Of a stretch of 64,000 nucleotides of DNA, positions 1,015 through 45,408 are shown in pieces. Made by a program: the position numbers and the translations under genes. The stretch lies in the IMG/VR virus record IMGVR_UViG_2675903433_000022. One strand, 5' to 3'. The stretch comes from a virus (lineage: Duplodnaviria; Heunggongvirae; Uroviricota; Caudoviricetes). The notes below the pieces were generated by a model, which was not told the DNA's origin, searched no databases, and was given only the letters and a program-made list of their open reading frames with translations. Position 1 is the stretch's first letter, and each line of letters opens with the position of its first letter.

Positions 1015-2088
1015 ATGGCAAAAGGAAAATCCGCACTGGCACTTGCTCTGAAAAAGAAAATCGGTAGCAACGACGAAATTCAGAAAGTAACTCATTGGAT
1101 TGACACAGGCTTTCCTCCGTTAAACAAAGCGATTTCCGGTCGTTACGATGGCGGTTTCCCATGTGGTCGTATCGTAGAAGTATTCGGGCCACCAAGCGCG
1201 GGGAAAACCTTTTTGGCAACGGCAGCAATGATCTCCGCACAGAAACAAGATGGTCTGGCGGTATTCCTCGATCATGAGAACAGTTTTGACGTTGGCCTGG
1301 CTGTAGCCAATGGCCTGAACGCAGATGAGGATGACGGTCAGTGGGTATACAAGCAGCCTGACACCTTCGAAGACTCTGTAGAGTTGATCGGCACAATACT
1401 TAAATTGGTACGTGATGAAGAGCTTATCCCTGAATCAGCACCTATCTGTATCGTGGCTGACTCACTTGCGTCTATGGTTCCGAACTCCAAAGCCGAGAAG
1501 TTCGAAAAGATGGCTGAAGGCACTGCCAAAGACAAAGATCAGCTAAACATGAACGACAATACGGCACTGGCTCGTGCGACAAGTGCGAACTTCCCTACTC
1601 TGGCTTTGTGGGCACGCAAATACAACGCCTGCATCATCTTCTTGAATCAGGTTCGCACAAAAATCGGTGTAATGTTTGGCGACCCTACTACGTCGCCAGG
1701 TGGAGATTCACCGAAGTTCTACGCTTCTGTACGTATCCGTCTTGGTGCATCGGTGATGAAGGATGGTAAAGAGAAGATCGGCCAGGACGTAGGCGCAGAA
1801 TGCATCAAAAACAAAGTTGCACCACCGTATGGCAAATGCACCTGGAAATTCTACTTCGATCCTACTCGTGGCCTCGACGTTATCGAATCGCTCGTCGAGT
1901 ACATGCTGGAAGAAGGATACCTGCCAAAGAACGCCAGCGGGCGAGTTGAAATTGGTGACAAGAAATACACCAAATCGCAGATCGTCGAGATGTATCGGGA
2001 GAAGCCACTGGCTGAAATCATTGCGGCTTTGCAGGCAATCGACGACCGAAGAGCAAAAGACAACCCCACCGAGTCAGTAGAAGAGTAA
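1015..2088 (+). CDS. RecA-family recombinase (phage RecA/UvsX-like)
   Basis: Walker A GPPSAGKTF; block IIFLNQVRTKIGVMFGDPTTSPGG..KFYASVRIRL closely parallels RecA [41 protein letters not shown] RBS before the ATG. Confidence 0.85.
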   Translation: MAKGKSALALALKKKIGSNDEIQKVTHWIDTGFPPLNKAISGRYDGGFPCGRIVEVFGPPSAGKTFLATAAMISAQKQDGLAVFLDHENSFDVGLAVANGLNADEDDGQWVYKQPDTFEDSVELIGTILKLVRDEELIPESAPICIVADSLASMVPNSKAEKFEKMAEGTAKDKDQLNMNDNTALARATSANFPTLALWARKYNACIIFLNQVRTKIGVMFGDPTTSPGGDSPKFYASVRIRLGASVMKDGKEKIGQDVGAECIKNKVAPPYGKCTWKFYFDPTRGLDVIESLVEYMLEEGYLPKNASGRVEIGDKKYTKSQIVEMYREKPLAEIIAALQAIDDRRAKDNPTESVEE

Positions 2089-9390: not shown

Positions 9391-9410
9391 GTGGACACCT
9401 TTGTCATTCA

Positions 9411-9512
9411 ACCGCTGACAGCATACTTGATTTGCCGCTGGCAGCATACCAAAAACAGTTGGTAGCATACGGCGAACCGTTGACAGACTATCAATTACCG
9501 CTGGCAGCATAC
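9411..9512. repeat. iteron array, 5 copies (incC/origin-proximal set)
   Basis: Same ACCGCTGACAGCATAC family (two degenerate) immediately upstream of the RepA start. Confidence 0.8.
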
Positions 9513-9552
9513 ATGAACATGGCTTCAGGCCAGTCGTGGCGCGGCTTACAGC

Positions 9553-9625
9553 GATCGGGGATCTTATTTGATCTATACAAGGATCTATCTATGGATCTCT
9601 TTATTAGGATCTATCCTGTGGATAT
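9553..9625. other. candidate plasmid replication origin core: six GATC sites in heptamer-like repeats plus DnaA-box-like TGTGGATAT
   Basis: GATC at ~9553, 9560, 9570, 9582, 9594, 9608 followed by TGTGGATAT (8/9 match to TGTGGATAA) at ~9617; adjacent to the upstream iterons as in P1 oriR. Confidence 0.6.
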
Positions 9626-9711
9626 GTGAATAATTAAAACAGGCATTTACTACCTTCGGCGCACCTGGTGGGTTATCGTTGCCTCGGCTAACAATCACAG
9701 AAAAATGACAT

Positions 9712-10356
9712 ATGGATCTAAAACGCACGCGCTGGGTTCGTCGTCTTGAAGACGGCTCCTACACTATCGAATCAAATTCCAACCTGAATAAGCAGAAGTT
9801 GCTTTGTGACATCTGCGGTATAGCGGCGAAGTGCCCGATCTACGAAACCAGAATTAAACTTGATAAGGCTGGTGTGAATTTTCATTTAAACAGTTGCATC
9901 AGGTACGTTCCATTGCTCGCATTTCGTAAACCGATCATCGGATTAGATGCACCCTACTTCAACACACTCCGTTCAGGTGTGACGTGGCGAGATCGTTTAT
10001 CACCAGACAAGCTGATTTGCCTTGTATCCGCAGACACAGGGAAAATCATCCGTTTTGGGAAAGTAGACAAGGTTTACTCAGGTCCAGTAGACGAAATGTT
10101 GCGGAAACACAGCCGGTTTAATCATCTCTGTATGGGTGGTGAGAAAATCGAGAAGGTAGAAGAAGTGATCCGCAAATCCTACGGACACTTCCTGAACAAA
10201 GATAGCCTGCTCACCGCAATCTACATCAGACATGTAAAACGTGAGTTCGACCTCGAATACCACAGTGAAGAAGAACTTAACCTTGTTGACCCACGTCCAA
10301 AAGCTGGCGTCATAAGCATAAACGCAGCGCGTAAAAAGCCCACTGACGCGCTGTAA
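9712..10356 (+). CDS. hypothetical protein
   Basis: Track ORF 214 aa. Confidence 0.55.
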   Translation: MDLKRTRWVRRLEDGSYTIESNSNLNKQKLLCDICGIAAKCPIYETRIKLDKAGVNFHLNSCIRYVPLLAFRKPIIGLDAPYFNTLRSGVTWRDRLSPDKLICLVSADTGKIIRFGKVDKVYSGPVDEMLRKHSRFNHLCMGGEKIEKVEEVIRKSYGHFLNKDSLLTAIYIRHVKREFDLEYHSEEELNLVDPRPKAGVISINAARKKPTDAL

Positions 10357-10611
10357 CCCTCCAGATCGCATATTGGCGTAGATAGAATCTACGCCTCCTC
10401 AAAATAGCTCTCATAGCGTTTTACAGTGATCCTGTCTTATTTTTAGTCATACAGACAAGCAAAGTTGCGCCACAATAAATAGGTATATACTTACTTATAA
10501 ATTTTGTATATTAAGGCGCTCGTTTTCATTCCTAACATACCGTTATGCATAGTTGTTTACCTTCTCATTGCTCTTAGAATTTGTATCAAAATAACCACAA
10601 AGGAAAAACAC

Positions 10612-11697
10612 ATGACTTTGCCTTACGGCGTCATTTCTGACTGCCACTACCACAAATGGGATGCGTTCTCCACGACGAACGCTGAGGGGCTTAACTCCAG
10701 ACTTGAAATACAGTTGGAGGCAACGAAAGAAGCAGCCATCGCCATGAAGAAGGCCGGTTGTAAGTACATGTTGGTTGCCGGTGATACATTTCACGTCCGA
10801 GGAACTGTGTCCCCTTCTGTTTTGCATTACGTAACTGAAACGTACAAGTGGATTATCAACGAGCTTGATCTGACAGTAGTAATGCTGGCCGGTAATCACG
10901 ATCTTGAAACCAACGATTCAGTATATAGCGCCAACGCAGCAGCATCGCTGAGTTCTATCGGCGTGGTAATCGTATGTGGCAAGCGCCCACACTCAATAAA
11001 AATTGGTGATGTGACTGTCCACCTGATTAGCTGGCGTAACAATCATGCGGAGCTTATCAGCGATCTGAAAGCATTACGTAAGAGCGTAGAAGGTGATAAT
11101 CATGACGTTGTTATCCATACATCCATTAACAAAGCCATTCCAACAATGCCTGACGTCGGTATCGATGCGCAGGAGTTAAAGGATATCGGCTTTCGTCTCG
11201 TGCTTAGTGGGCATTACCACAACCACAAAGAGGTCATTCCTGGAGTTATCAGTGTCGGTGCGCTGACCCATCAAAATTGGGGAGATGTTGGATCTCTGGC
11301 TGGTTACATGATCGTAAACCCGGACGGCAGTTTCAGTCACTACGAAACCAGTGCGCCTAAATTCATTAACCTGGAAGATGATGTTGCTGATGACCAAATT
11401 CGCGGCAACTACGTGCGTTTCCGTGCCGTAATTGAGAACGATGAAGAAGGCATTAAGTACCAGAACATCCTCAAAACAATGGGTGCAAAAGGTGTCGTGT
11501 GCAACTTCATCCGTAAGTCATCAATGATGGAAGGGACAGCCAGCACAACTGAAACCAGCAAAATCGATAGCCTGGGAGAGTCGGTATCTGCTTATTGCAA
11601 GATTGTCCACGATACTGACGGCGGATTTGATCTGAGCAAGTTGGATATTTTGTGTCAGGAAATCCTCACCGAAGCGGAGAGTTCGGAGGCTGTGTGA
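10612..11697 (+). CDS. SbcD/Mre11-like metallophosphoesterase nuclease
   Basis: Track ORF 10504..11697, start moved to ATG 10612 after AAAGGAAAAACACATG; calcineurin-like motifs DCHYH, GDTFH, GNHD, GHYHNH. Confidence 0.8.
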   Translation: MTLPYGVISDCHYHKWDAFSTTNAEGLNSRLEIQLEATKEAAIAMKKAGCKYMLVAGDTFHVRGTVSPSVLHYVTETYKWIINELDLTVVMLAGNHDLETNDSVYSANAAASLSSIGVVIVCGKRPHSIKIGDVTVHLISWRNNHAELISDLKALRKSVEGDNHDVVIHTSINKAIPTMPDVGIDAQELKDIGFRLVLSGHYHNHKEVIPGVISVGALTHQNWGDVGSLAGYMIVNPDGSFSHYETSAPKFINLEDDVADDQIRGNYVRFRAVIENDEEGIKYQNILKTMGAKGVVCNFIRKSSMMEGTASTTETSKIDSLGESVSAYCKIVHDTDGGFDLSKLDILCQEILTEAESSEAV

Positions 11698-11926
11698 AGC
11701 AAAGTCGTTATGGGAGCTTTCGAGACTTTGCCATCACGATGAAAAGACTTGAACGAGGCCAGACGGTGATGTTTCACAAGCCCTACCCGCCACAAGGAAA
11801 TCCCGTAGCGTTTTATCTTGGAAGGTTAACCAGAAAAGGCGTATTGAGGCGCAGATCCTTCCCGGCGCATACGGAGTTCAGATTGAAAGAAGGCCAAAAA
11901 CTAACACACGGTATCAGAGGTGTTAT

Positions 11927-13843
11927 ATGAAGTTTTTAAAACTCCAGGTTGAGAATTTTATGGCTATCGCCAGCGCGGAGGTCGAGTTAGATCAGCGTGG
12001 TTTAGTGCTCATTCAGGGTGTTAATAGTGATGATAGTTCCGCATCAAGCAATGGCTCTGGAAAGTCAACGCTAATGAATAGCCTGATGTGGTGTCTTTAT
12101 GGCGAAACAGCTCATGGTGTGAAGGGTGACGATGTGTTGTCTACCGACCATGAAAAGAACTGTCGTGTTGCAGTAACCATCGAGGATGAAGGCAAGAGAT
12201 ACGCAATCATTCGTCACCGTAAACACAAAGAGTTCAAAAATCGTCTTATCGTTCGTGGTGAAGATGGCGATATGACGAAAGGCAAAGATGCGCTGACGCA
12301 GGAGTTCGTTGAGCGTCTGATCGGTGCATCTAAAGAGGTTTTCATGGCTTCCATCTATGCGAGCCAAGAAGCTATGCCAGATTTACCTGGAATGTCCGAC
12401 AAAAACCTCAAAACCATCGTAGAAGAAGCCGCTGGCGTTGACAGACTGACACGCGCCTACGCTATTGCTCGTGAGCGAGCTAATGCAGCTGCCGCACGTA
12501 TGGATGTGGTTAAAACCAAATTGGAGTCGACAATCTCGACCATTGAGGCAACACAGTCAGAAATTGAGTCAGCGAAAGCCTCCTCTGAATCATGGGAACA
12601 AGAGCGTTCTAAACGTTATGACGATGCCCTGGCTGGGCTGGCCAGTGCCGAAGTTGAGTTAACGGAAGTTGAACTTGAGATCCGCACTCTTCCCGAACAG
12701 ATCCGTGATACCGAGAAGGCAATCGAAAGTGAGCGCAAAAAGTTAGCCTCAAAAGAAGAACATGACGCCAAGTTGCTCAAAGTTCGTGGTGCGATAACTG
12801 ATATTCGGGCAAGCATCAAAGCTACAGAAAATAGTCAGGCTGATGCAATGAACCGCGCGCGTAATTTTAAGACCAAAGCAGAAGAGGTTGGTACTAAAGT
12901 GGGATCACCATGCCCTACTTGTGGCAAAGCCTACTGCGAAGAAGATCTATCAACGGTGAAGGAGAATTTCATTGAACAAGCACGTCAGGAAATTGGTCAG
13001 GCGAAGACACTTGCAGAGGCAATGGCTAAACACAAAACGAATCTTGAGAAAGCGTTAAGCATTGAGTCTGCCCTTGTTAAAACGACACCTGATGTAACGG
13101 CTATCATTGCCCGGATTGAAGAGCTTACGAAACAACTCTCATCTTTGCGTCATCGTGAGAAGGAGGTTGTTGCTATTGAGTCTCTTGTGACTCGTGCTCG
13201 TACTGAGGTCGATCGTATATCAAAAGAGATTAATCCGTTTATTGCTCTTATCGCCAGACACGAAGATAACCTGGTATCCAGTAAGTCTACCTTCAAGTCC
13301 TTAAAAGATGAGTTGAAGGCTATTCAGGAACAAACGTTGCTATTGGAAAAAGCTCGTCAGGTCTACTCTCCTGCCGGGGTGCGTTCTCATATTTTGACGT
13401 CTGTTACGCCTTTCCTGAATACACGCACTGCCGAGTATCTCAATACGTTGTCTGACGGGAATATTACTGCTGAGTGGTCGACGATGGATGTCACTAAAAA
13501 AGGTGAGTATCGCGACAAATTCAACATTAGTGTGCAGAAGAAAGGTTCAAGTAAGTCGTTCCAGACCCTCTCTGGTGGTGAGAAGCGGAAGGTTCGCATT
13601 GCGTGTTCTTTGGCATTGCAGGATCTGGTTAGTAACCGGGCGAGTAAAAACATCGATTTGTTTATCGGCGACGAAATTGACGATGCACTCGATACAGCCG
13701 GTCTTGAACGCCTCATGGGTATTCTGGAGTCCAAAGCTCGCGAGCGAGGTACTGTGCTGATTATCTCCCATAAAGAGATGAAGTCATGGTTCCGGGAAAC
13801 TATTACGCTGGAAGTTAAAGAGGGGCGCAGCTATGTCGTTTAA
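11927..13843 (+). CDS. SbcC/Rad50-like ATPase
   Basis: Walker A GSGKST, central coiled coil with zinc hook CPTCGK, signature LSGGEKRK, Walker B DEIDDALD. Confidence 0.85.
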   Translation: MKFLKLQVENFMAIASAEVELDQRGLVLIQGVNSDDSSASSNGSGKSTLMNSLMWCLYGETAHGVKGDDVLSTDHEKNCRVAVTIEDEGKRYAIIRHRKHKEFKNRLIVRGEDGDMTKGKDALTQEFVERLIGASKEVFMASIYASQEAMPDLPGMSDKNLKTIVEEAAGVDRLTRAYAIARERANAAAARMDVVKTKLESTISTIEATQSEIESAKASSESWEQERSKRYDDALAGLASAEVELTEVELEIRTLPEQIRDTEKAIESERKKLASKEEHDAKLLKVRGAITDIRASIKATENSQADAMNRARNFKTKAEEVGTKVGSPCPTCGKAYCEEDLSTVKENFIEQARQEIGQAKTLAEAMAKHKTNLEKALSIESALVKTTPDVTAIIARIEELTKQLSSLRHREKEVVAIESLVTRARTEVDRISKEINPFIALIARHEDNLVSSKSTFKSLKDELKAIQEQTLLLEKARQVYSPAGVRSHILTSVTPFLNTRTAEYLNTLSDGNITAEWSTMDVTKKGEYRDKFNISVQKKGSSKSFQTLSGGEKRKVRIACSLALQDLVSNRASKNIDLFIGDEIDDALDTAGLERLMGILESKARERGTVLIISHKEMKSWFRETITLEVKEGRSYVV

Positions 13844-17650: not shown

Positions 17651-18793
17651 ATGTCATATTCAACGTTCCGTTTGGGTGCTAATGATGCAACCAAAGAGCC
17701 TATGTTCCTCGGACAATCTGTCAACGTGGCACGTTACGATCAGCAAAAATACCGTGATTTTGAAAAGTTGATTGAACGTCAATTGTCTTTCTTCTGGCGG
17801 CCGGAAGAAGTTGATATTTCGAGCGATCGTATCGACTTCAACACGAAGCTGCGGGACCACGAACGTCACATTTTTCTGAGCAATCTCCGTTATCAAACGT
17901 TACTCGATTCAGTTCAGGGACGTAGCCCAAATGCAACGCTGCTGCCGCTTATCTCTATTCCTGAACTGGAAACGTGGGTTGAAACATGGTCTTTCTCTGA
18001 GACTATCCATAGCCGCAGCTACACCCACATTATTCGTGGCATGGTGGACGATCCGAGCATTGTTTTTGACGGTATTGTTACGGATGAAGAAATCATCAAC
18101 CGAGCGATCAGTATCTCTGCTGAATATGACAGGCTTTATGGGATGACCTGCGAGCGCCAGTCGTTAGGTGAGAAGGAGTTTGAACGTCTGTACGTAAATG
18201 AATATGGCTGGGAGCCATACCCTTTGCACCGTCAGCTTTTCCGCACGTTGGTGTCCATTAATGCGCTTGAGGCGATCCGTTTCTATGTAAGTTTTGCATG
18301 TACGTTTGCCTTTGGCGAACGGAAGTTGCTTGAGGGTAACACCAAAATTATGCGCTTTATTGCCCGTGATGAAGCTCTGCATTGCGAAGGAACTGAACGC
18401 ATGATCCGCTTCATGCGTACCGGTCGCGAAGGTTTATTGTGGAAAGAGATTGCTGCTGATGAAGAAAACGTCATTTACGACACCATGAAATCAGTCGCCG
18501 AACAAGAAATGAACTGGGCAGACTATCTCTTCAAAGACGGTTCGATGATTGGTTTAAACGCGGATATTCTGAAGACCTATGTAAAATACCGAACCAATCT
18601 GGCTATGAATCGTCTTGGCCTGAAGGCTTTATTTCCAGAGGTTACCACCGATCCGCTGGTCTGGATGAACAAGTGGTTGTTAACCGACACACTGCAAATT
18701 GCACCACAAGAGGCAGAGCAAAGCACATATCTGGTAGGTCAGATCGATTCTACCGTGGATAAGGCTTCTCTAAGCCAGTTTGCTGACCTGTAA
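17651..18793 (+). CDS. nrdB: ribonucleotide reductase class Ia small subunit
   Basis: 380 aa; length and iron-ligand region [11 protein letters not shown] consistent with NrdB; directly after nrdA. Confidence 0.9.
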
Positions 18794-36890: not shown

Positions 36891-37415
36891 ATGACCAAAT
36901 TTGGAAAGCTGGAAGCTCATTTGCTGACTCGTAACTACCGCCATGATATACACCCATATAGACAGTGGATTGATGAAAGCGAAGGAGTTGTTACATTCCC
37001 TCTATACAGGTTTGATGGGATGTTGGCCGGGTATCAGACATACAGACCAGGCGCTCCTAAGCAGCATAGCAATCCGAAGATGGCCCGGTATTTCACACGA
37101 GCGCACGGCAGACAGCTACTATGGGGTACCTATCTTCCTTTAAAAGATGGACCGATATGGATAACTGAGTCGATTTTTAAAAGTGCAGCAGTGCACAACG
37201 CGGGCGGAAATTCGTGGGCGCTGTTAGGCTCGACTTTCTCAGCAGGATTACGTCGTCAACTGGCAATGCTGCCGTATGACTTTCGTGTAATAGGTGACAA
37301 TGATGCGGCTGGCGAATCACTTGTGAAGTCTTTCGGAAAAGGTTTTGTGGCACCGGATCTTGACGAGCTACAACCACATGAAGTGTCTAATTTGATTTTT
37401 AGCCATAGCCAATAA
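36891..37415 (+). CDS. hypothetical protein
   Basis: Track ORF 36852..37415, ATG 36891 after the upstream stop. Confidence 0.5.
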   Translation: MTKFGKLEAHLLTRNYRHDIHPYRQWIDESEGVVTFPLYRFDGMLAGYQTYRPGAPKQHSNPKMARYFTRAHGRQLLWGTYLPLKDGPIWITESIFKSAAVHNAGGNSWALLGSTFSAGLRRQLAMLPYDFRVIGDNDAAGESLVKSFGKGFVAPDLDELQPHEVSNLIFSHSQ

Positions 37416-37431
37416 GTATCACTTCTCCATT

Positions 37432-37452
37432 AAGGCCACAACTAGTGGCCTT
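37432..37452 (+). terminator. stem-loop terminator (AAGGCC..GGCCTT family)
   Basis: AAGGCCACAACTAGTGGCCTT followed by the TTGTTTTCTAC..GAGAAAAT cassette. Confidence 0.5.
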
Positions 37453-37538
37453 AAACAATTTGTTTTCTACGTTTTCTTATTTGAGAAAATCACGTTGTTG
37501 GCAGCTCATAGGCTTGTTGTTATACATAGCTGTATAGA

Positions 37539-37895
37539 TTATGAGCGTAAATTATTAGCGGATTTTAAGCCATATTCACCGTTATAGTAATTACTCGCGT
37601 TCCATTCATTGGGAAGCTCTTGTCTGTCCAATGTATAGTGGCGCACGATGTAACGACCTGCATCTTCTTCGAGGTACAGGCGGACATAGCCAATGTGAAT
37701 TACCGGTATGGGCGGCGTTCGTATTGCATAGATGTCGCGGAGATATACCGGTAGCTCGACAAATGCATCAGGTGCATCTGTGATGCTCGTTTTTTCACAG
37801 TATTCATATAACGCATCGTTGATATCGTTAAGGGATTCATGATCGTATATTTCCAGGTAATTACCCCGATCGCGATGGTACTCGATTTTAGCCAT
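37539..37895 (-). CDS. hypothetical protein
   Basis: Track ORF 118 aa, minus strand, directly downstream of 37896..38480. Confidence 0.5.
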   Translation of the reverse strand: MAKIEYHRDRGNYLEIYDHESLNDINDALYEYCEKTSITDAPDAFVELPVYLRDIYAIRTPPIPVIHIGYVRLYLEEDAGRYIVRHYTLDRQELPNEWNASNYYNGEYGLKSANNLRS

Positions 37896-38480
37896 TCAAA
37901 ATCCCCTATTATCGTTTTGCATTTCTCTAATCCGGTCCAGAACAACTTCATGTTGGGCTTGGATAGCGGCTTTTTCGTTTTCAAGCCGGGCAATAGACTT
38001 CTCTAATTCTTTGCTGTACCAGGCAAGTTGGGTAAGGTTCATCCGGTTGTGATCGAGAGTTGGCGACACCTCGACGTGATCCCCTTCTTCCTGCCTTAAT
38101 GAGAAGAGATTCATCTCATCCCTTGAGGAAAATTCAGCAACAATTTCTTGTTGATGATCCGGTCGCTGCGGCATCCTTGCCAGTATAAATGGCGGTTCTA
38201 TTGAAAACATGAATGACGGTTTAGACCGTGTTTTGACCCATCTAGCTTGCTGTCTTTCGGCAAGTTCACAGGCTTCATCATAGTTATCTACAAAACCAAG
38301 CACGGATGGACGGTCCCACGCGCCACCATTCAGACAATAAACAACAATTTTCCCGTCAGGTTCTGTAACTCCATAGGGATGGTCCCACCAGGCGTCCAGC
38401 TGGGCTTTGGAGCGTTTCTCGTTAGGAGTGCAGTCAAAATTTTTGGGCAATGCAGGATCGAGAGGAATGCGGGCAGGCAT
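37896..38480 (-). CDS. hypothetical protein
   Basis: Track ORF 194 aa; divergent from the UmuD-like gene across the LexA-box region. Confidence 0.5.
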   Translation of the reverse strand: MPARIPLDPALPKNFDCTPNEKRSKAQLDAWWDHPYGVTEPDGKIVVYCLNGGAWDRPSVLGFVDNYDEACELAERQQARWVKTRSKPSFMFSIEPPFILARMPQRPDHQQEIVAEFSSRDEMNLFSLRQEEGDHVEVSPTLDHNRMNLTQLAWYSKELEKSIARLENEKAAIQAQHEVVLDRIREMQNDNRGF

Positions 38481-38614
38481 GGCTAATTCCTTATTAATTG
38501 ATTAGTAACGAGGTTACGCTGATCCAGCGGTGATGAATAGTAGCAAAGCGCACAAAGTCATCAGAGGGGTTAAGACCCATAACGCGTTTGCACCAAAGGT
38601 GCATCTTTAATGTA

Positions 38615-38634
38615 TACTGTATGGATAAACAGTA
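38615..38634. promoter_or_regulatory. LexA (SOS) box
   Basis: TACTGTATGGATAAACAGTA fits CTGT-N8-ACAG; about 20 bp upstream of the UmuD-like start in a divergent promoter region. Confidence 0.7.
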
Positions 38635-38652
38635 TTTTGAGGTGAAAACGCT

Positions 38653-39042
38653 ATGGGCTTCCCTTCTCCTGCGGCGGATTATGCTGAGAGCCGTATTTCT
38701 CTTGATCAGCAGATAATTAGACATCCTTCAGCGACCTACTTCATGAGGGCAGCTGATAGCCATCATCGTGAGGGAATATTACAGGGTGCATTGCTGGTGG
38801 TCGATTCCTCACTTACCCCGGTTGATGGTTCTCTGCTTGTATGCGCTCTGGATGGGGAATATCGCGTAAAAAGATACCGGAAGTATCCACGTCAGCATCT
38901 GGAGGATTTAAGAACCGGTAAGAAGGAAGCATTGCCAAAGGATGACGATGGATGCACGGGCAGCAATGCCGTGTTTGGTGTGATCACTCACATTATCAAC
39001 GACGCAAGAAGTGGCGAGTTTGATGATTGTCCCGTGATGTAG
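38653..39042 (+). CDS. UmuD'-like (HumD-like) S24 peptidase-family protein
   Basis: Starts MGFPSPAADY, i.e. at the position equivalent to the post-cleavage N-terminus of UmuD (C|GFPSPAADY); HPSATYF and Ser/Lys dyad region conserved. Confidence 0.8.
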   Translation: MGFPSPAADYAESRISLDQQIIRHPSATYFMRAADSHHREGILQGALLVVDSSLTPVDGSLLVCALDGEYRVKRYRKYPRQHLEDLRTGKKEALPKDDDGCTGSNAVFGVITHIINDARSGEFDDCPVM

Positions 39043-39053
39043 GAGAACTGATT

Positions 39054-39078
39054 AGGCGGTGCAATGCACCGCCTTTTT
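39054..39078. terminator. bidirectional terminator hairpin between convergent genes
   Basis: Palindrome AGGCGGTGCAATGCACCGCCT followed by a T run. Confidence 0.55.
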
Positions 39079-39079
39079 A

Positions 39080-40180
39080 TCACACTGCGCGGAATGCGAT
39101 TTCGCCAGGTATTACTTCACCTTGCCAATACATTTGGGCAGCAACGCGATCTGCGAGGTCACGATAAATAGCCGTAAATTCGCTATCTGGACGACTAATA
39201 ACGGTTGGTGTTCCGTTATCCAGATCTTCACGAAGAGAGATATGAAGTGGCATTTGGCCTAACAACTGCGTGTTGTATTTCTCGGCCAGTTTCTGTGCGC
39301 CACCGGTGCCAAAAATTGGCTCGTGATGACCGCAGTTACTGCAAATATGCATACTCATGTTCTCGACAATACCGAGCACCGGAACCTCGACTTTCTCGAA
39401 CATCACAATGCCTTTTTTCGCATCGATCAACGCGATGTCCTGCGGCGTAGTTACCACAACCGCACCAGTTACAGGAATGTTCTGCGCCAGCGTCAATTGA
39501 ATATCACCAGTGCCCGGCGGCATATCGAGAACGAGATAGTCCAGATCAGGCCATAGAGTTTCCTGCAACATCTGCATTAACGCCTTGCTCGCCATCGGAC
39601 CACGCCACACCATCGCATTGTCGTCAGTTACCAGATAACCAATTGAATTGGTTGCCAGTCCATGAGACATAATCGGTGCCATGTGAGTACCGTCCGGTGA
39701 GGTTGGACGTTGGTTTTCCGCGCCAAGCATGGTTGGAATTGATGGCCCGTAGATATCGGCATCCAAAATACCAACTTTCGCACCTTCAGCAGCCAACGCC
39801 AGTGCCAGGTTTACCGCCGTGGAGGATTTACCAACGCCGCCCTTGCCTGAGCTGACGGCGATAATGTTCTTAACGCCATTAATGCCTGGTTGGTTTTTGA
39901 CGCGCTTAAGCGTGGCAATGTTGTACGACAGCTTCCAGTCGATAGCCTTTGCGCCAGTGATACGGAGCAGATCACCACTACATTGCTCTTTCAGGTCTTC
40001 AAAAGGCTTATTCCACACGAAAGGCATGATTAGTTCGACATGCAGTGTGTCATCCATCAACGCAACATGGTGTAACGCTTTAAGCGTAGTCAGGTTGTGT
40101 TTCAGGGTTGGGTGCTGAAAATTAGCCAGCGTACCGGCTACCATTGCTCTCAGGGCATCCGGCGATTTGGACTCGCTCAT
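39080..40180 (-). CDS. apbC: Fe-S cluster carrier ATPase Mrp/ApbC
   Basis: 366 aa; deviant Walker A SGKGGVGKS; reads as near full-length enterobacterial Mrp by recall. Confidence 0.9.
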   Translation of the reverse strand: MSESKSPDALRAMVAGTLANFQHPTLKHNLTTLKALHHVALMDDTLHVELIMPFVWNKPFEDLKEQCSGDLLRITGAKAIDWKLSYNIATLKRVKNQPGINGVKNIIAVSSGKGGVGKSSTAVNLALALAAEGAKVGILDADIYGPSIPTMLGAENQRPTSPDGTHMAPIMSHGLATNSIGYLVTDDNAMVWRGPMASKALMQMLQETLWPDLDYLVLDMPPGTGDIQLTLAQNIPVTGAVVVTTPQDIALIDAKKGIVMFEKVEVPVLGIVENMSMHICSNCGHHEPIFGTGGAQKLAEKYNTQLLGQMPLHISLREDLDNGTPTVISRPDSEFTAIYRDLADRVAAQMYWQGEVIPGEIAFRAV

Positions 40181-40337
40181 CCCGTCTCCTTTATTTTAAT
40201 TTGCGCAATTGTCGCCTTGTAGTGTACTCCAGCTACGGCATTTAATCATTTATGAGAAATGCTGTTATCACATGGCAGACATAAGGCCATTTTGTTACTA
40301 TCAAGCCCCTTTTCACTACAAAGAAGTAATGCCTACT

Positions 40338-42371
40338 ATGACCCAAGTCGCGAAGAAAATTCTGGTGACGTGCGCGCTGCCGTACGCTAACGGCTCAATC
40401 CACCTCGGCCATATGCTGGAGCACATCCAGGCTGATGTCTGGGTTCGTTACCAGCGAATGCGCGGCCACGAGGTTAATTTCATCTGTGCCGACGATGCCC
40501 ACGGTACGCCGATCATGCTGAAAGCACAGCAGCTTGGTATCACACCGGAGCAGATGATTGGCGAAATGAGTCAGGAACACCAGACTGATTTCGCAGGCTT
40601 TAACATCAGCTATGACAACTATCACTCGACGCACAGCGAAGAGAACCGTCAGTTGTCTGAGCTTATCTATACTCGCCTGAAAGAGAACGGTTTTATTAAA
40701 AATCGTACCATCTCTCAGCTGTACGACCCGGAAAAAGGCATGTTCCTGCCGGACCGTTTTGTAAAAGGCACCTGCCCTAAATGTAAAGCGCCAGATCAAT
40801 ACGGCGATAACTGTGAAGTCTGCGGCGCGACTTACAGCCCGACTGAACTGATCGAGCCGAAATCGGTAGTTTCTGGTGCTACGCCGGTAATGCGTGATTC
40901 CGAACACTTCTTCTTTGATCTGCCTTCTTTCAGCGAAATGTTGCAGGCATGGACCCGCAGCGGTGCGTTGCAGGAGCAGGTGGCAAACAAAATGCAGGAG
41001 TGGTTTGAATCTGGCCTGCAACAGTGGGATATCTCCCGTGACGCACCTTACTTCGGTTTTGAAATTCCGAACGCGCCGGGCAAATATTTCTACGTCTGGC
41101 TGGACGCGCCGATTGGCTACATGGGTTCCTTCAAGAATCTGTGCGACAAGCGCGGTGATACCACCAGCTTCGATGAATACTGGAAGAAAGACTCCACCGC
41201 CGAGCTGTACCACTTCATCGGTAAAGATATTGTTTACTTCCACAGCCTGTTCTGGCCTGCCATGCTGGAAGGCAGCAACTTCCGCAAGCCGACCAACCTG
41301 TTTGTTCATGGCTATGTGACGGTGAACGGCGCAAAGATGTCCAAGTCTCGCGGCACCTTTATTAAAGCCAGCACCTGGCTGAATCATTTTGACGCTGACA
41401 GCCTGCGTTACTACTACACTGCGAAACTCTCTTCGCGCATTGATGATATCGATCTCAACCTGGAGGATTTCGTTCAGCGCGTGAATGCCGATATCGTGAA
41501 CAAAGTGGTTAACCTGGCCTCCCGTAATGCAGGCTTTATCAACAAGCGTTTTGACGGCGTGCTGGCAAGCGAACTGGCTGACCCGCAACTGTACAAAACC
41601 TTTACTGATGCCGCTGAAGTGATTGGTGAAGCATGGGAAAGCCGCGAATTTGGTAAAGCGATTCGTGAAATCATGGCGCTGGCTGATCTGGCTAACCGCT
41701 ATGTCGATGAACAGGCTCCGTGGGTGGTGGCGAAGCAGGAAGGACGCGATGCCGATCTGCAGGCGATTTGCTCTATGGGCATTAACCTGTTCCGCGTGCT
41801 GATGACGTACCTGAAACCGGTACTGCCGAAACTGACTGAACGTGCAGAAGCATTCCTGAATACAGAACTGACCTGGGATGGTATCCAGCAACCGCTGCTG
41901 GGCCATAAAGTGAATCCGTTCAAGGCACTGTATAACCGTATCGATATGAAACAGGTGGAAGCACTGGTGGAAGCATCCAAAGAAGAAGTGAAAGCCACAG
42001 CTGCACCGGTAACTGGCCCACTGGCTGACGACCCGATTCAGGAAACCATCACCTTTGACGACTTCGCCAAAGTTGACCTGCGTGTGGCGCTGATTGAAAA
42101 CGCGGAGTTTGTCGAAGGTTCTGACAAACTGCTTCGCCTGACGCTGGATCTCGGTGGTGAAAAGCGTAATGTCTTCTCAGGCATCCGTTCCGCTTATCCA
42201 GATCCACAGGCACTGATTGGTCGTCACACCATTATGGTGGCTAACCTGGCTCCGCGTAAAATGCGCTTCGGTATCTCTGAAGGCATGGTGATGGCTGCTG
42301 GCCCCGGCGGGAAAGATATCTTCCTGTTAAGCCCGGATGCTGGTGCTAAACCTGGCCACCAGGTTAAGTAA
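40338..42371 (+). CDS. metG: methionyl-tRNA synthetase
   Basis: Track ORF 40209..42371, true start ATG 40338 (MTQVAKKIL); HIGH-type motif [14 protein letters not shown], zinc knuckles CPKC/CEVC and C-terminal tRNA-binding domain. Confidence 0.95.
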
Positions 42372-42393
42372 TTAAACAACCTCTCTTCGCAAT

Positions 42394-45096: not shown

Positions 45097-45408
45097 ATGA
45101 AAAAATCATTGGTTCTTGGTCTGGACAAAGACCAGAAGAGAAAAGAGAAGCCTGCACTGGTTGCTCAATTAACTTTGCTGGACATCGTTGCCAATGGGAC
45201 CTCTATTCGTCTGTTCCGTGAAACAGCGGTGTCTTTCGATAAAAACACCTTTACTCGTTATGTAATGAATGTTCGTCGCCAGCGTGGAAAAGGCTGGGTG
45301 GCATTTCAAAGAATGTGGCCGGAACATCAGCTCGAACTGGCTTTGATGGAAGTAAACCGCGTGGCCCAGCAAGAGATTCAGAGAGCATCAGTGATGGCAA
45401 TAGCCTGA
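45097..45408 (+). CDS. hypothetical protein
   Basis: Track ORF 45067..45408, ATG 45097 after the palindrome. Confidence 0.5.
   Translation: MKKSLVLGLDKDQKRKEKPALVAQLTLLDIVANGTSIRLFRETAVSFDKNTFTRYVMNVRRQRGKGWVAFQRMWPEHQLELALMEVNRVAQQEIQRASVMAIA

Follow-up and report, generated by a model that had tools for sequence, protein, structure and literature searches.

Within the 64-kb window (the whole stretch of DNA that was analysed), the gene humD opens with an ATG at 38653, its stop codon ends at 39042, and its product, taken from the sequence and its open reading frame, starts MGFPSPAADY. The gene is equipped with its own Shine-Dalgarno sequence and with a predicted intrinsic terminator, the latter placed between the humD stop and the stop of a convergent apbC gene, and a predicted LexA box precedes the ATG with a gap of 18 nt. 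Two minus-strand ORFs, lxr and a 118-aa ORF, diverge from the 172-bp intergenic region that they have in common with humD. A sequence-only reading of this DNA had described a divergent promoter region shared with two minus-strand hypothetical genes; the arrangement is as it said, while the label "hypothetical" gives way to lxr and a homologue of P7 upf93.6. Absent from that reading were the identities of these neighbours, the fact that the arrangement has already been described, and the SSU5-like phage-plasmid that hosts it. Coordinates and the means by which the features were recognized are collected in Table 1.

Table 1. Genes and predicted regulatory features at the humD locus of the window.
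Feature	Position	Strand	Description
humD	38653..39042	+	129-aa HumD-family protein, predicted UmuD' analogue without a cleavable N-terminal arm
humD Shine-Dalgarno GAGGTG	38640..38645	+	7 nt before the ATG; direct reading; identical in P1
humD intrinsic terminator	39054..39084	+	terminator scan: 9-bp stem with 7 GC pairs, loop of 3, then TTTTAT
LexA (SOS) box TACTGTATGGATAAACAGTA	38615..38634		20-bp palindrome; consensus scan and homology to the P1/P7 sites; predicted
Candidate humD promoter	38588..38618	+	TTGCAC, 19-nt spacer, TATACT; 8 of 12, weak, inferred; hexamer scan
Candidate lxr promoter	38616..38646	-	TTCACC, 19-nt spacer, TACAGT; 8 of 12, weak, inferred; hexamer scan
lxr	37896..38480	-	194 aa; homologue of P1 Lxr and P7 Upf94.2
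118-aa ORF	37539..37895	-	abuts the lxr stop; homologue of P7 Upf93.6; PHROG 5797

The humD product matches the NCBIfam equivalog family NF051876, "HumD family translesion DNA polymerase", with 219.8 bits against a cut-off of 120, and the match is full length, residues 1-129 of the protein lying on profile positions 1-129 of 129. Pfam places a Peptidase_S24 domain at residues 1-80. Amino-acid identity in alignment is about 91-92% to P1 HumD and 44% to E. coli UmuD. The proposal that the protein begins exactly at the UmuD cleavage position is borne out by a three-way alignment of the window HumD, P1 HumD and UmuD, in which Gly2 of HumD falls on Gly25 of UmuD, at the Cys24/Gly25 cut, placing the N-terminus at the cleavage-site equivalent. 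In a PDB sequence search, residue 1 of the UmuD' chain 1umu_A corresponds to residue 2 of HumD, with the best sequence matches being the UmuD'/UmuD chains 1umu, 1i4v, 8gmt and 1ay9 (E 1e-22 for 1umu, 1i4v and 8gmt). A TGA lies in frame at 38638..38640, four codons 5' of the ATG, with no alternative start between them, so no longer N-terminus is possible and a longer UmuD-like protein with a hidden upstream start is ruled out. At the level of sequence, the full-length family match and the identity to P1 HumD agree with the further suggestion that the protein would be made pre-activated, as P1 HumD is.

Two other identities within the S24 group were rejected. The NCBIfam UmuD subfamily model NF007621 scores 87 bits, below its cut-off of 110, and the cleavable Cys/Ala-Gly arm is absent, excluding a UmuD proprotein. 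A LexA or phage CI-type S24 repressor is excluded by the presence of the S24 domain only, without an N-terminal DNA-binding domain; the LexA model gives 27 bits against a cut-off of 111 and is covered only in its C-terminal part. By these comparisons the window HumD would work like UmuD' but is not a UmuD proprotein. E. coli UmuD/UmuD', the Pol V accessory subunit, has the S24 fold in common with HumD, and the HumD N-terminus coincides with that of UmuD'. HumD differs from UmuD in lacking the 24-residue cleavable arm, hence having no RecA*-dependent activation step, in having no co-transcribed umuC, and in possessing a C-terminal extension of about 10 residues together with a 4-residue insertion.

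Comparison of the window humD with P1 humD gave a dN of 0.042 and a dS of 0.739, and the resulting dN/dS of approximately 0.06 shows that the gene is under strong purifying selection. In tblastn searches against phage genomes, a 100% identical protein was found in Escherichia phage Cyrano, identities of 91-93% in P1, P7-like phages, RCS47, SJ46 and D6, and identities of 62-71% in N15, phiKO2, HK140 and HK639. The last group, comprising N15 gp26, phiKO2 gp23 and the UmuD-like proteins of the lambdoid HK140 and HK639, consists of stand-alone genes of temperate phages with the same length and start, carried on phage backbones that differ from that of the window. Close known kin of the window HumD also occur among RefSeq plasmid proteins, under the name "HumD family translesion DNA polymerase". 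Of 5426 complete E. coli genomes, 773 contain a match of at least 80% identity to the 601-bp humD region, and most of these matches lie on plasmids.

The LexA box was located by a scan allowing up to 3 mismatches to TACTGTATATATATACAGTA (consensus TACTG(TA)5CAGTA), with 100 dinucleotide-preserving shuffles as a control. The site at 38615..38634 is the sole one within this limit in the 64-kb window, and none of the 100 shuffles produced one. All three mismatches of TACTGTATGGATAAACAGTA to the consensus fall in the central spacer, both arms TACTG/CAGTA being perfect, and the box is identical at 17 of 20 positions to the E. coli umuDC operator as read from MG1655. Window and P1 agree at 94% of positions in the intergenic region, with the arms of the box conserved and the variation in the box confined to the spacer, which differs at 3 positions (ATGGATAA in the window vs ATAAATGA in P1). 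In the GenBank record of P1, a feature described as a "LexA binding site in the regulatory region of lxr and humD" precedes humD by 19 nt, and the record of P7 labels the homologous site "regulation of humD expression". The canonical LexA box that had been suggested about 20 bp upstream of the gene is therefore found where it was placed and is homologous to the annotated P1/P7 sites, and LexA would be expected to control the window copy of humD.

The looser core CTGT-N8-ACAG occurs twice in the window against 0.67 expected. The second occurrence, at 45211..45226 (CTGTTCCGTGAAACAG), has a GC-rich spacer, poor flanks and more than 5 mismatches to the 20-mer consensus, lies within chance expectation, and is probably not a LexA site. 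Promoters near the box are faint. A stricter scan detected no sigma-70 promoter near the box at 9 or more of 12 positions, and a relaxed hexamer scan returned best candidates on both strands of 8 of 12, with spacers of 18-19 nt. The humD candidate has its -10 partly on the left arm of the box, and the -10 of the lxr candidate lies inside the box; the overlap of operator and promoters is a conjecture because no strong sigma-70 promoter is detectable. A terminator-like hairpin upstream of the box at 38589..38603 was discarded, its 3' arm being disrupted in P1 (GCA to GTC) and a proper T-run being absent.

On the divergent side, Lxr shares 90% identity across 189 aa (E 4e-133) with P1 Lxr, which the P1 GenBank record labels "LexA regulated function". 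It belongs to PHROG 6164, of the category unknown function, and Pfam returned no match for it. The 118-aa ORF is probably co-transcribed with lxr.

The window matches SSU5-like phage-plasmids, among them Cyrano/pLF82, CMS-2020a, PhiR41_1 and E. coli plasmids of 107-128 kb, and these elements carry nrdAB, thyX, a DHFR gene, tail and capsid genes, and RepB. By these matches the element is an SSU5-like siphovirus phage-plasmid of E. coli, neither P1 nor chromosome. Nucleotide homology with P1 is limited precisely to humD, lxr and the DNA between them (window 37913..39041, 89.4%), and homology with P7 extends over window 37279..39032 at 90.8%. P1 HumD (AAQ14181) has 129 aa and is 91% identical, with the same M-GFPSPAADY start, and P1 has the divergent lxr, 90% identical, and the homologous LexA box equally distant from the ATG. 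The two elements differ downstream of humD, where P1 has phd-doc and the window has the convergent apbC followed by metG, and in their backbones, that of the window being SSU5-like. P7 displays the same four-part order, upf93.6-upf94.2-LexA-humD, with the 118-aa ORF included, and differs in continuing into phd and in being a P1-type myovirus plasmid prophage. Cyrano (pLF82) encodes the 100% identical protein as CYRAN_98, with the same LexA box and the same apbC and metG neighbours at about 97-98% nucleotide identity, and differs from the window in lacking lxr.

The segment that Cyrano has in common with the window begins at 38605, with 10 nt left to the LexA box, so the box and humD travel together. 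In pLH09-a-C, lxr is truncated and present only as fragments. The Cyrano breakpoint and this truncation point to the operator-humD unit as the conserved core of a mobile module. Among the SSU5-like phage-plasmids the lxr side is variable, and the window carries the full P7-type upf93.6-lxr pair. Divergence from P1 is also uneven along the segment, with a dS of 0.74 for humD and 0.20 for lxr; since humD is far more diverged than lxr, the module itself is mosaic. Judged from these homology boundaries, lxr, the LexA box and humD form a cassette of 1.1-1.8 kb that moves between unrelated P1/P7-type and SSU5-type phage-plasmids.

Adjoining humD at window 39084..42372, the divergent pair of apbC (mrp, minus strand) and metG (plus strand) is 89.1% identical in nucleotide sequence over 3298 bp to K-12 mrp-metG. 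The match takes in the intergenic region, and its ends coincide with both stop codons, which marks a captured host segment that gives the element its own methionyl-tRNA synthetase. The same segment is present in Cyrano, pLH09-a-C and pS2-S1K81-2. Elsewhere in the window, the ORF at 1015..2088 (357 aa) has the same length as the RecA homologue of a relative and lies in a matching segment. In the related plasmid NZ_CP107145.1 (4414..5487, 9393..12911) the element family encodes its own RecA homologue, and the plasmid also encodes DnaE (Pol III alpha), a DnaB-like helicase, a ligase and a 3'-5' exonuclease. NZ_CP107145.1 has another LexA-like box, AACTGTATAAGTAAACAGTA, at 18605, between an integrase and a hypothetical gene, in a part of the plasmid outside the window.

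The wider family was surveyed at 39 homologue loci retrieved from one-genome-per-species contigs, 37 of which were examined; retrieval was biased, one search pattern being MGFPSPAA. Enterobacterial ORFs of the M-GFPSPA/M-AFPSPA type make up 33 of the 37 loci. Homologues from Citrobacter, Klebsiella, Kluyvera, Enterobacter, Atlantibacter, Lelliottia and other genera all start M-GFPSPA, mostly without a usable upstream start. More than 25 species have an intact ORF of 123-129 aa that likewise begins M-G, a start that the search patterns favoured. A CTG-N10-CAG box starting 35-65 nt before the ATG was found in 19 of the 33 enterobacterial loci, six of the 19 having two tandem boxes, and about 40% of the enterobacterial loci have no such box within 120 nt. 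Boxes equally distant from the ATG accompany homologues that are only 50-70% identical in protein. Chromosomal enterobacterial loci with 58-71% identity differ from the window in often having two tandem LexA boxes and in none having lxr. In five chromosomal humD homologues, of Klebsiella, Kluyvera, Pseudocitrobacter and Citrobacter (L008, L009, L010, L019 and L020), two tandem LexA-type boxes lie about 65 to 20 nt upstream of the ATG, their starts being some 63 and 39 nt away from it; only one box is present in the window. The idea that lxr travels with humD outside P1-type cassettes was dropped, as neither lxr nor the 118-aa ORF gave a match at the 39 homologue loci.

The window HumD retains the Ser/Lys dyad in alignment, S36 corresponding to UmuD S60 and K73 to UmuD K97. 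Across 31 family members, the Ser60 position is occupied by S in 8, T in 15, M in 3, P in 2 and other residues in the remainder, and the Lys97 position by K in 16 and R in 12, with M also occurring. The protease dyad is thus not conserved in these sequences and has decayed across the family, consistent with self-cleavage no longer being needed.

The sequence-only reading had also reported no umuC partner, and wider searches agree. A tblastn search with E. coli UmuC at E<=10 found no homologue in the 64-kb window, and none was found by tblastn in the P1 segment or in 39 kb of Cyrano. The complete 111.9-kb relative pS2-S1K81-2 gave no tblastn match to UmuC better than E=0.47, and its annotation lists no Y-family polymerase. 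In the window and its relatives, humD is accordingly a stand-alone phage/plasmid gene with no umuC adjoining. Since the element carries no umuC, a UmuC partner must be host-supplied, and we infer a partnership of the window HumD with the UmuC of the host.

HumD and its LexA site have been known since about 1999-2004, and the protein has already been named by the NCBI pipeline. P1 HumD is reportedly the subject of McLenigan et al. 1999 (J Bacteriol 181:7005), the other primary paper being Lobocka 2004. According to the note in the P1 GenBank record, this protein "functionally complements E. coli UmuD'"; standing in for UmuD' in UmuC-dependent SOS mutagenesis is known for P1 HumD only, from that note and secondary citations. 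The article PMC9603915 describes humD as LexA-regulated. In P1, knock-down of humD and of lxr by CRISPRi produced no lytic-growth defect, which means that any benefit is conditional. The functional claim for the window HumD would accordingly be carried by the P1 GenBank notes and secondary citations, from which UmuD'-like activity of the window copy is to be expected. Taken with the sequence comparisons, the feature is very probably humD, a phage/plasmid-borne UmuD' analogue that is under SOS/LexA control, is made pre-activated and has host UmuC as its partner.

In the proposed mechanism, the gene encodes solely the C-terminal S24-fold domain, with translation beginning one residue before the position at which RecA* stimulates the cut in UmuD. 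In undamaged cells, host LexA would sit on the single operator at 38615..38634, which coincides in part with the likely -10 elements of both humD and the lxr-upf93.6 unit, and with LexA bound both humD and, probably, the divergent unit would be off. DNA damage would inactivate LexA, and HumD would be produced at once in the active UmuD' form. HumD would then dimerise and join the SOS-induced UmuC of the host, as expected for an element that carries no umuC of its own. Translesion synthesis would then proceed with a Pol V-like polymerase, without the wait for the slow RecA*-mediated cleavage of UmuD to UmuD'. The expected gain would be replication of phage-plasmid and host past lesions, with mutagenesis as the cost.

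It is unlikely that HumD acts without host UmuC and modulates replication or SOS signalling. Such a role might involve binding the DnaE or RecA of the element, binding host Pol III subunits or the beta clamp in a checkpoint-like manner, or serving as a RecA* decoy. Its appeal lies in the SSU5-like relatives, which encode RecA, Pol III alpha, a DnaB-like helicase and a 3'-5' exonuclease, in the equal length of the window ORF at 1015..2088 and the relative's RecA homologue, and in the lack of a linked umuC at any enterobacterial humD homologue locus examined. UmuD and UmuD' interact with Pol III subunits, which counts in the same direction, as does the C-terminal extension of HumD that is absent from UmuD. 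However, the GenBank note on the 91%-identical P1 protein credits it with complementing UmuD', a function that requires UmuC, the GFPSPAADY segment and the core align closely with UmuD', and the data give no specific hint of another partner. A recruitment of HumD to the element's own replication or recombination proteins, through activation on its RecA filament or modulation of its DnaE, is rated as distinctly improbable; if true, it would make HumD an element-specific, SOS-timed damage-tolerance device instead of a simple boost to host Pol V. Pre-activated HumD acting with host UmuC remains the preferred reading.

Doubts about the regulation and about the gene itself carry less weight. The LexA box could be a relic or a chance palindrome, with humD expressed constitutively or under phage regulators, given that no convincing sigma-70 promoter overlaps it, that the P1 GenBank record puts a predicted PhumD about 480 bp upstream, inside lxr, and that some two-fifths of the enterobacterial loci have no box within 120 nt. 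This is very unlikely in the face of the shuffling control and the two perfect arms, the restriction of variation between window and P1 to the spacer, the recurrence of boxes at the same distance from the ATG in distant homologues, and the Cyrano breakpoint that keeps box and gene together. The missing N-terminal arm and the lack of a umuC neighbour could in turn be taken to mark a functionless, degenerate umuDC remnant, formed by 5' truncation of umuD and loss of umuC. That reading is hardly credible: dN/dS stays near 0.06 against P1 despite a dS of 0.74, intact M-G ORFs persist in more than 25 species (with search patterns that favoured this start), humD has its own Shine-Dalgarno sequence, predicted operator and terminator, and a curated equivalog family has been built for it. 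Selection and conservation together effectively refute this reading already.

The additions made here to what was known of SOS-controlled humD are modest, namely its residence in an SSU5-type phage-plasmid as a recombining cassette, the captured apbC-metG neighbour, and the family-wide decay of the dyad. The main use of the analysis is the correct annotation of the window. Widespread phage-plasmids that bring along a Pol V cofactor in pre-activated form could increase SOS mutagenesis in clinical E. coli. Among the homologue loci, a Chitinophagaceae MAG (L034, 3001..4595) contains an M-GFPSPAADY ORF, a start that the search pattern favoured, with a stop three codons upstream and a umuC homologue directly after it (41.6% identity over 418 aa). 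By its sequence, this locus resembles a umuDC-type operon whose UmuD' is made pre-truncated, in a non-enterobacterial MAG.
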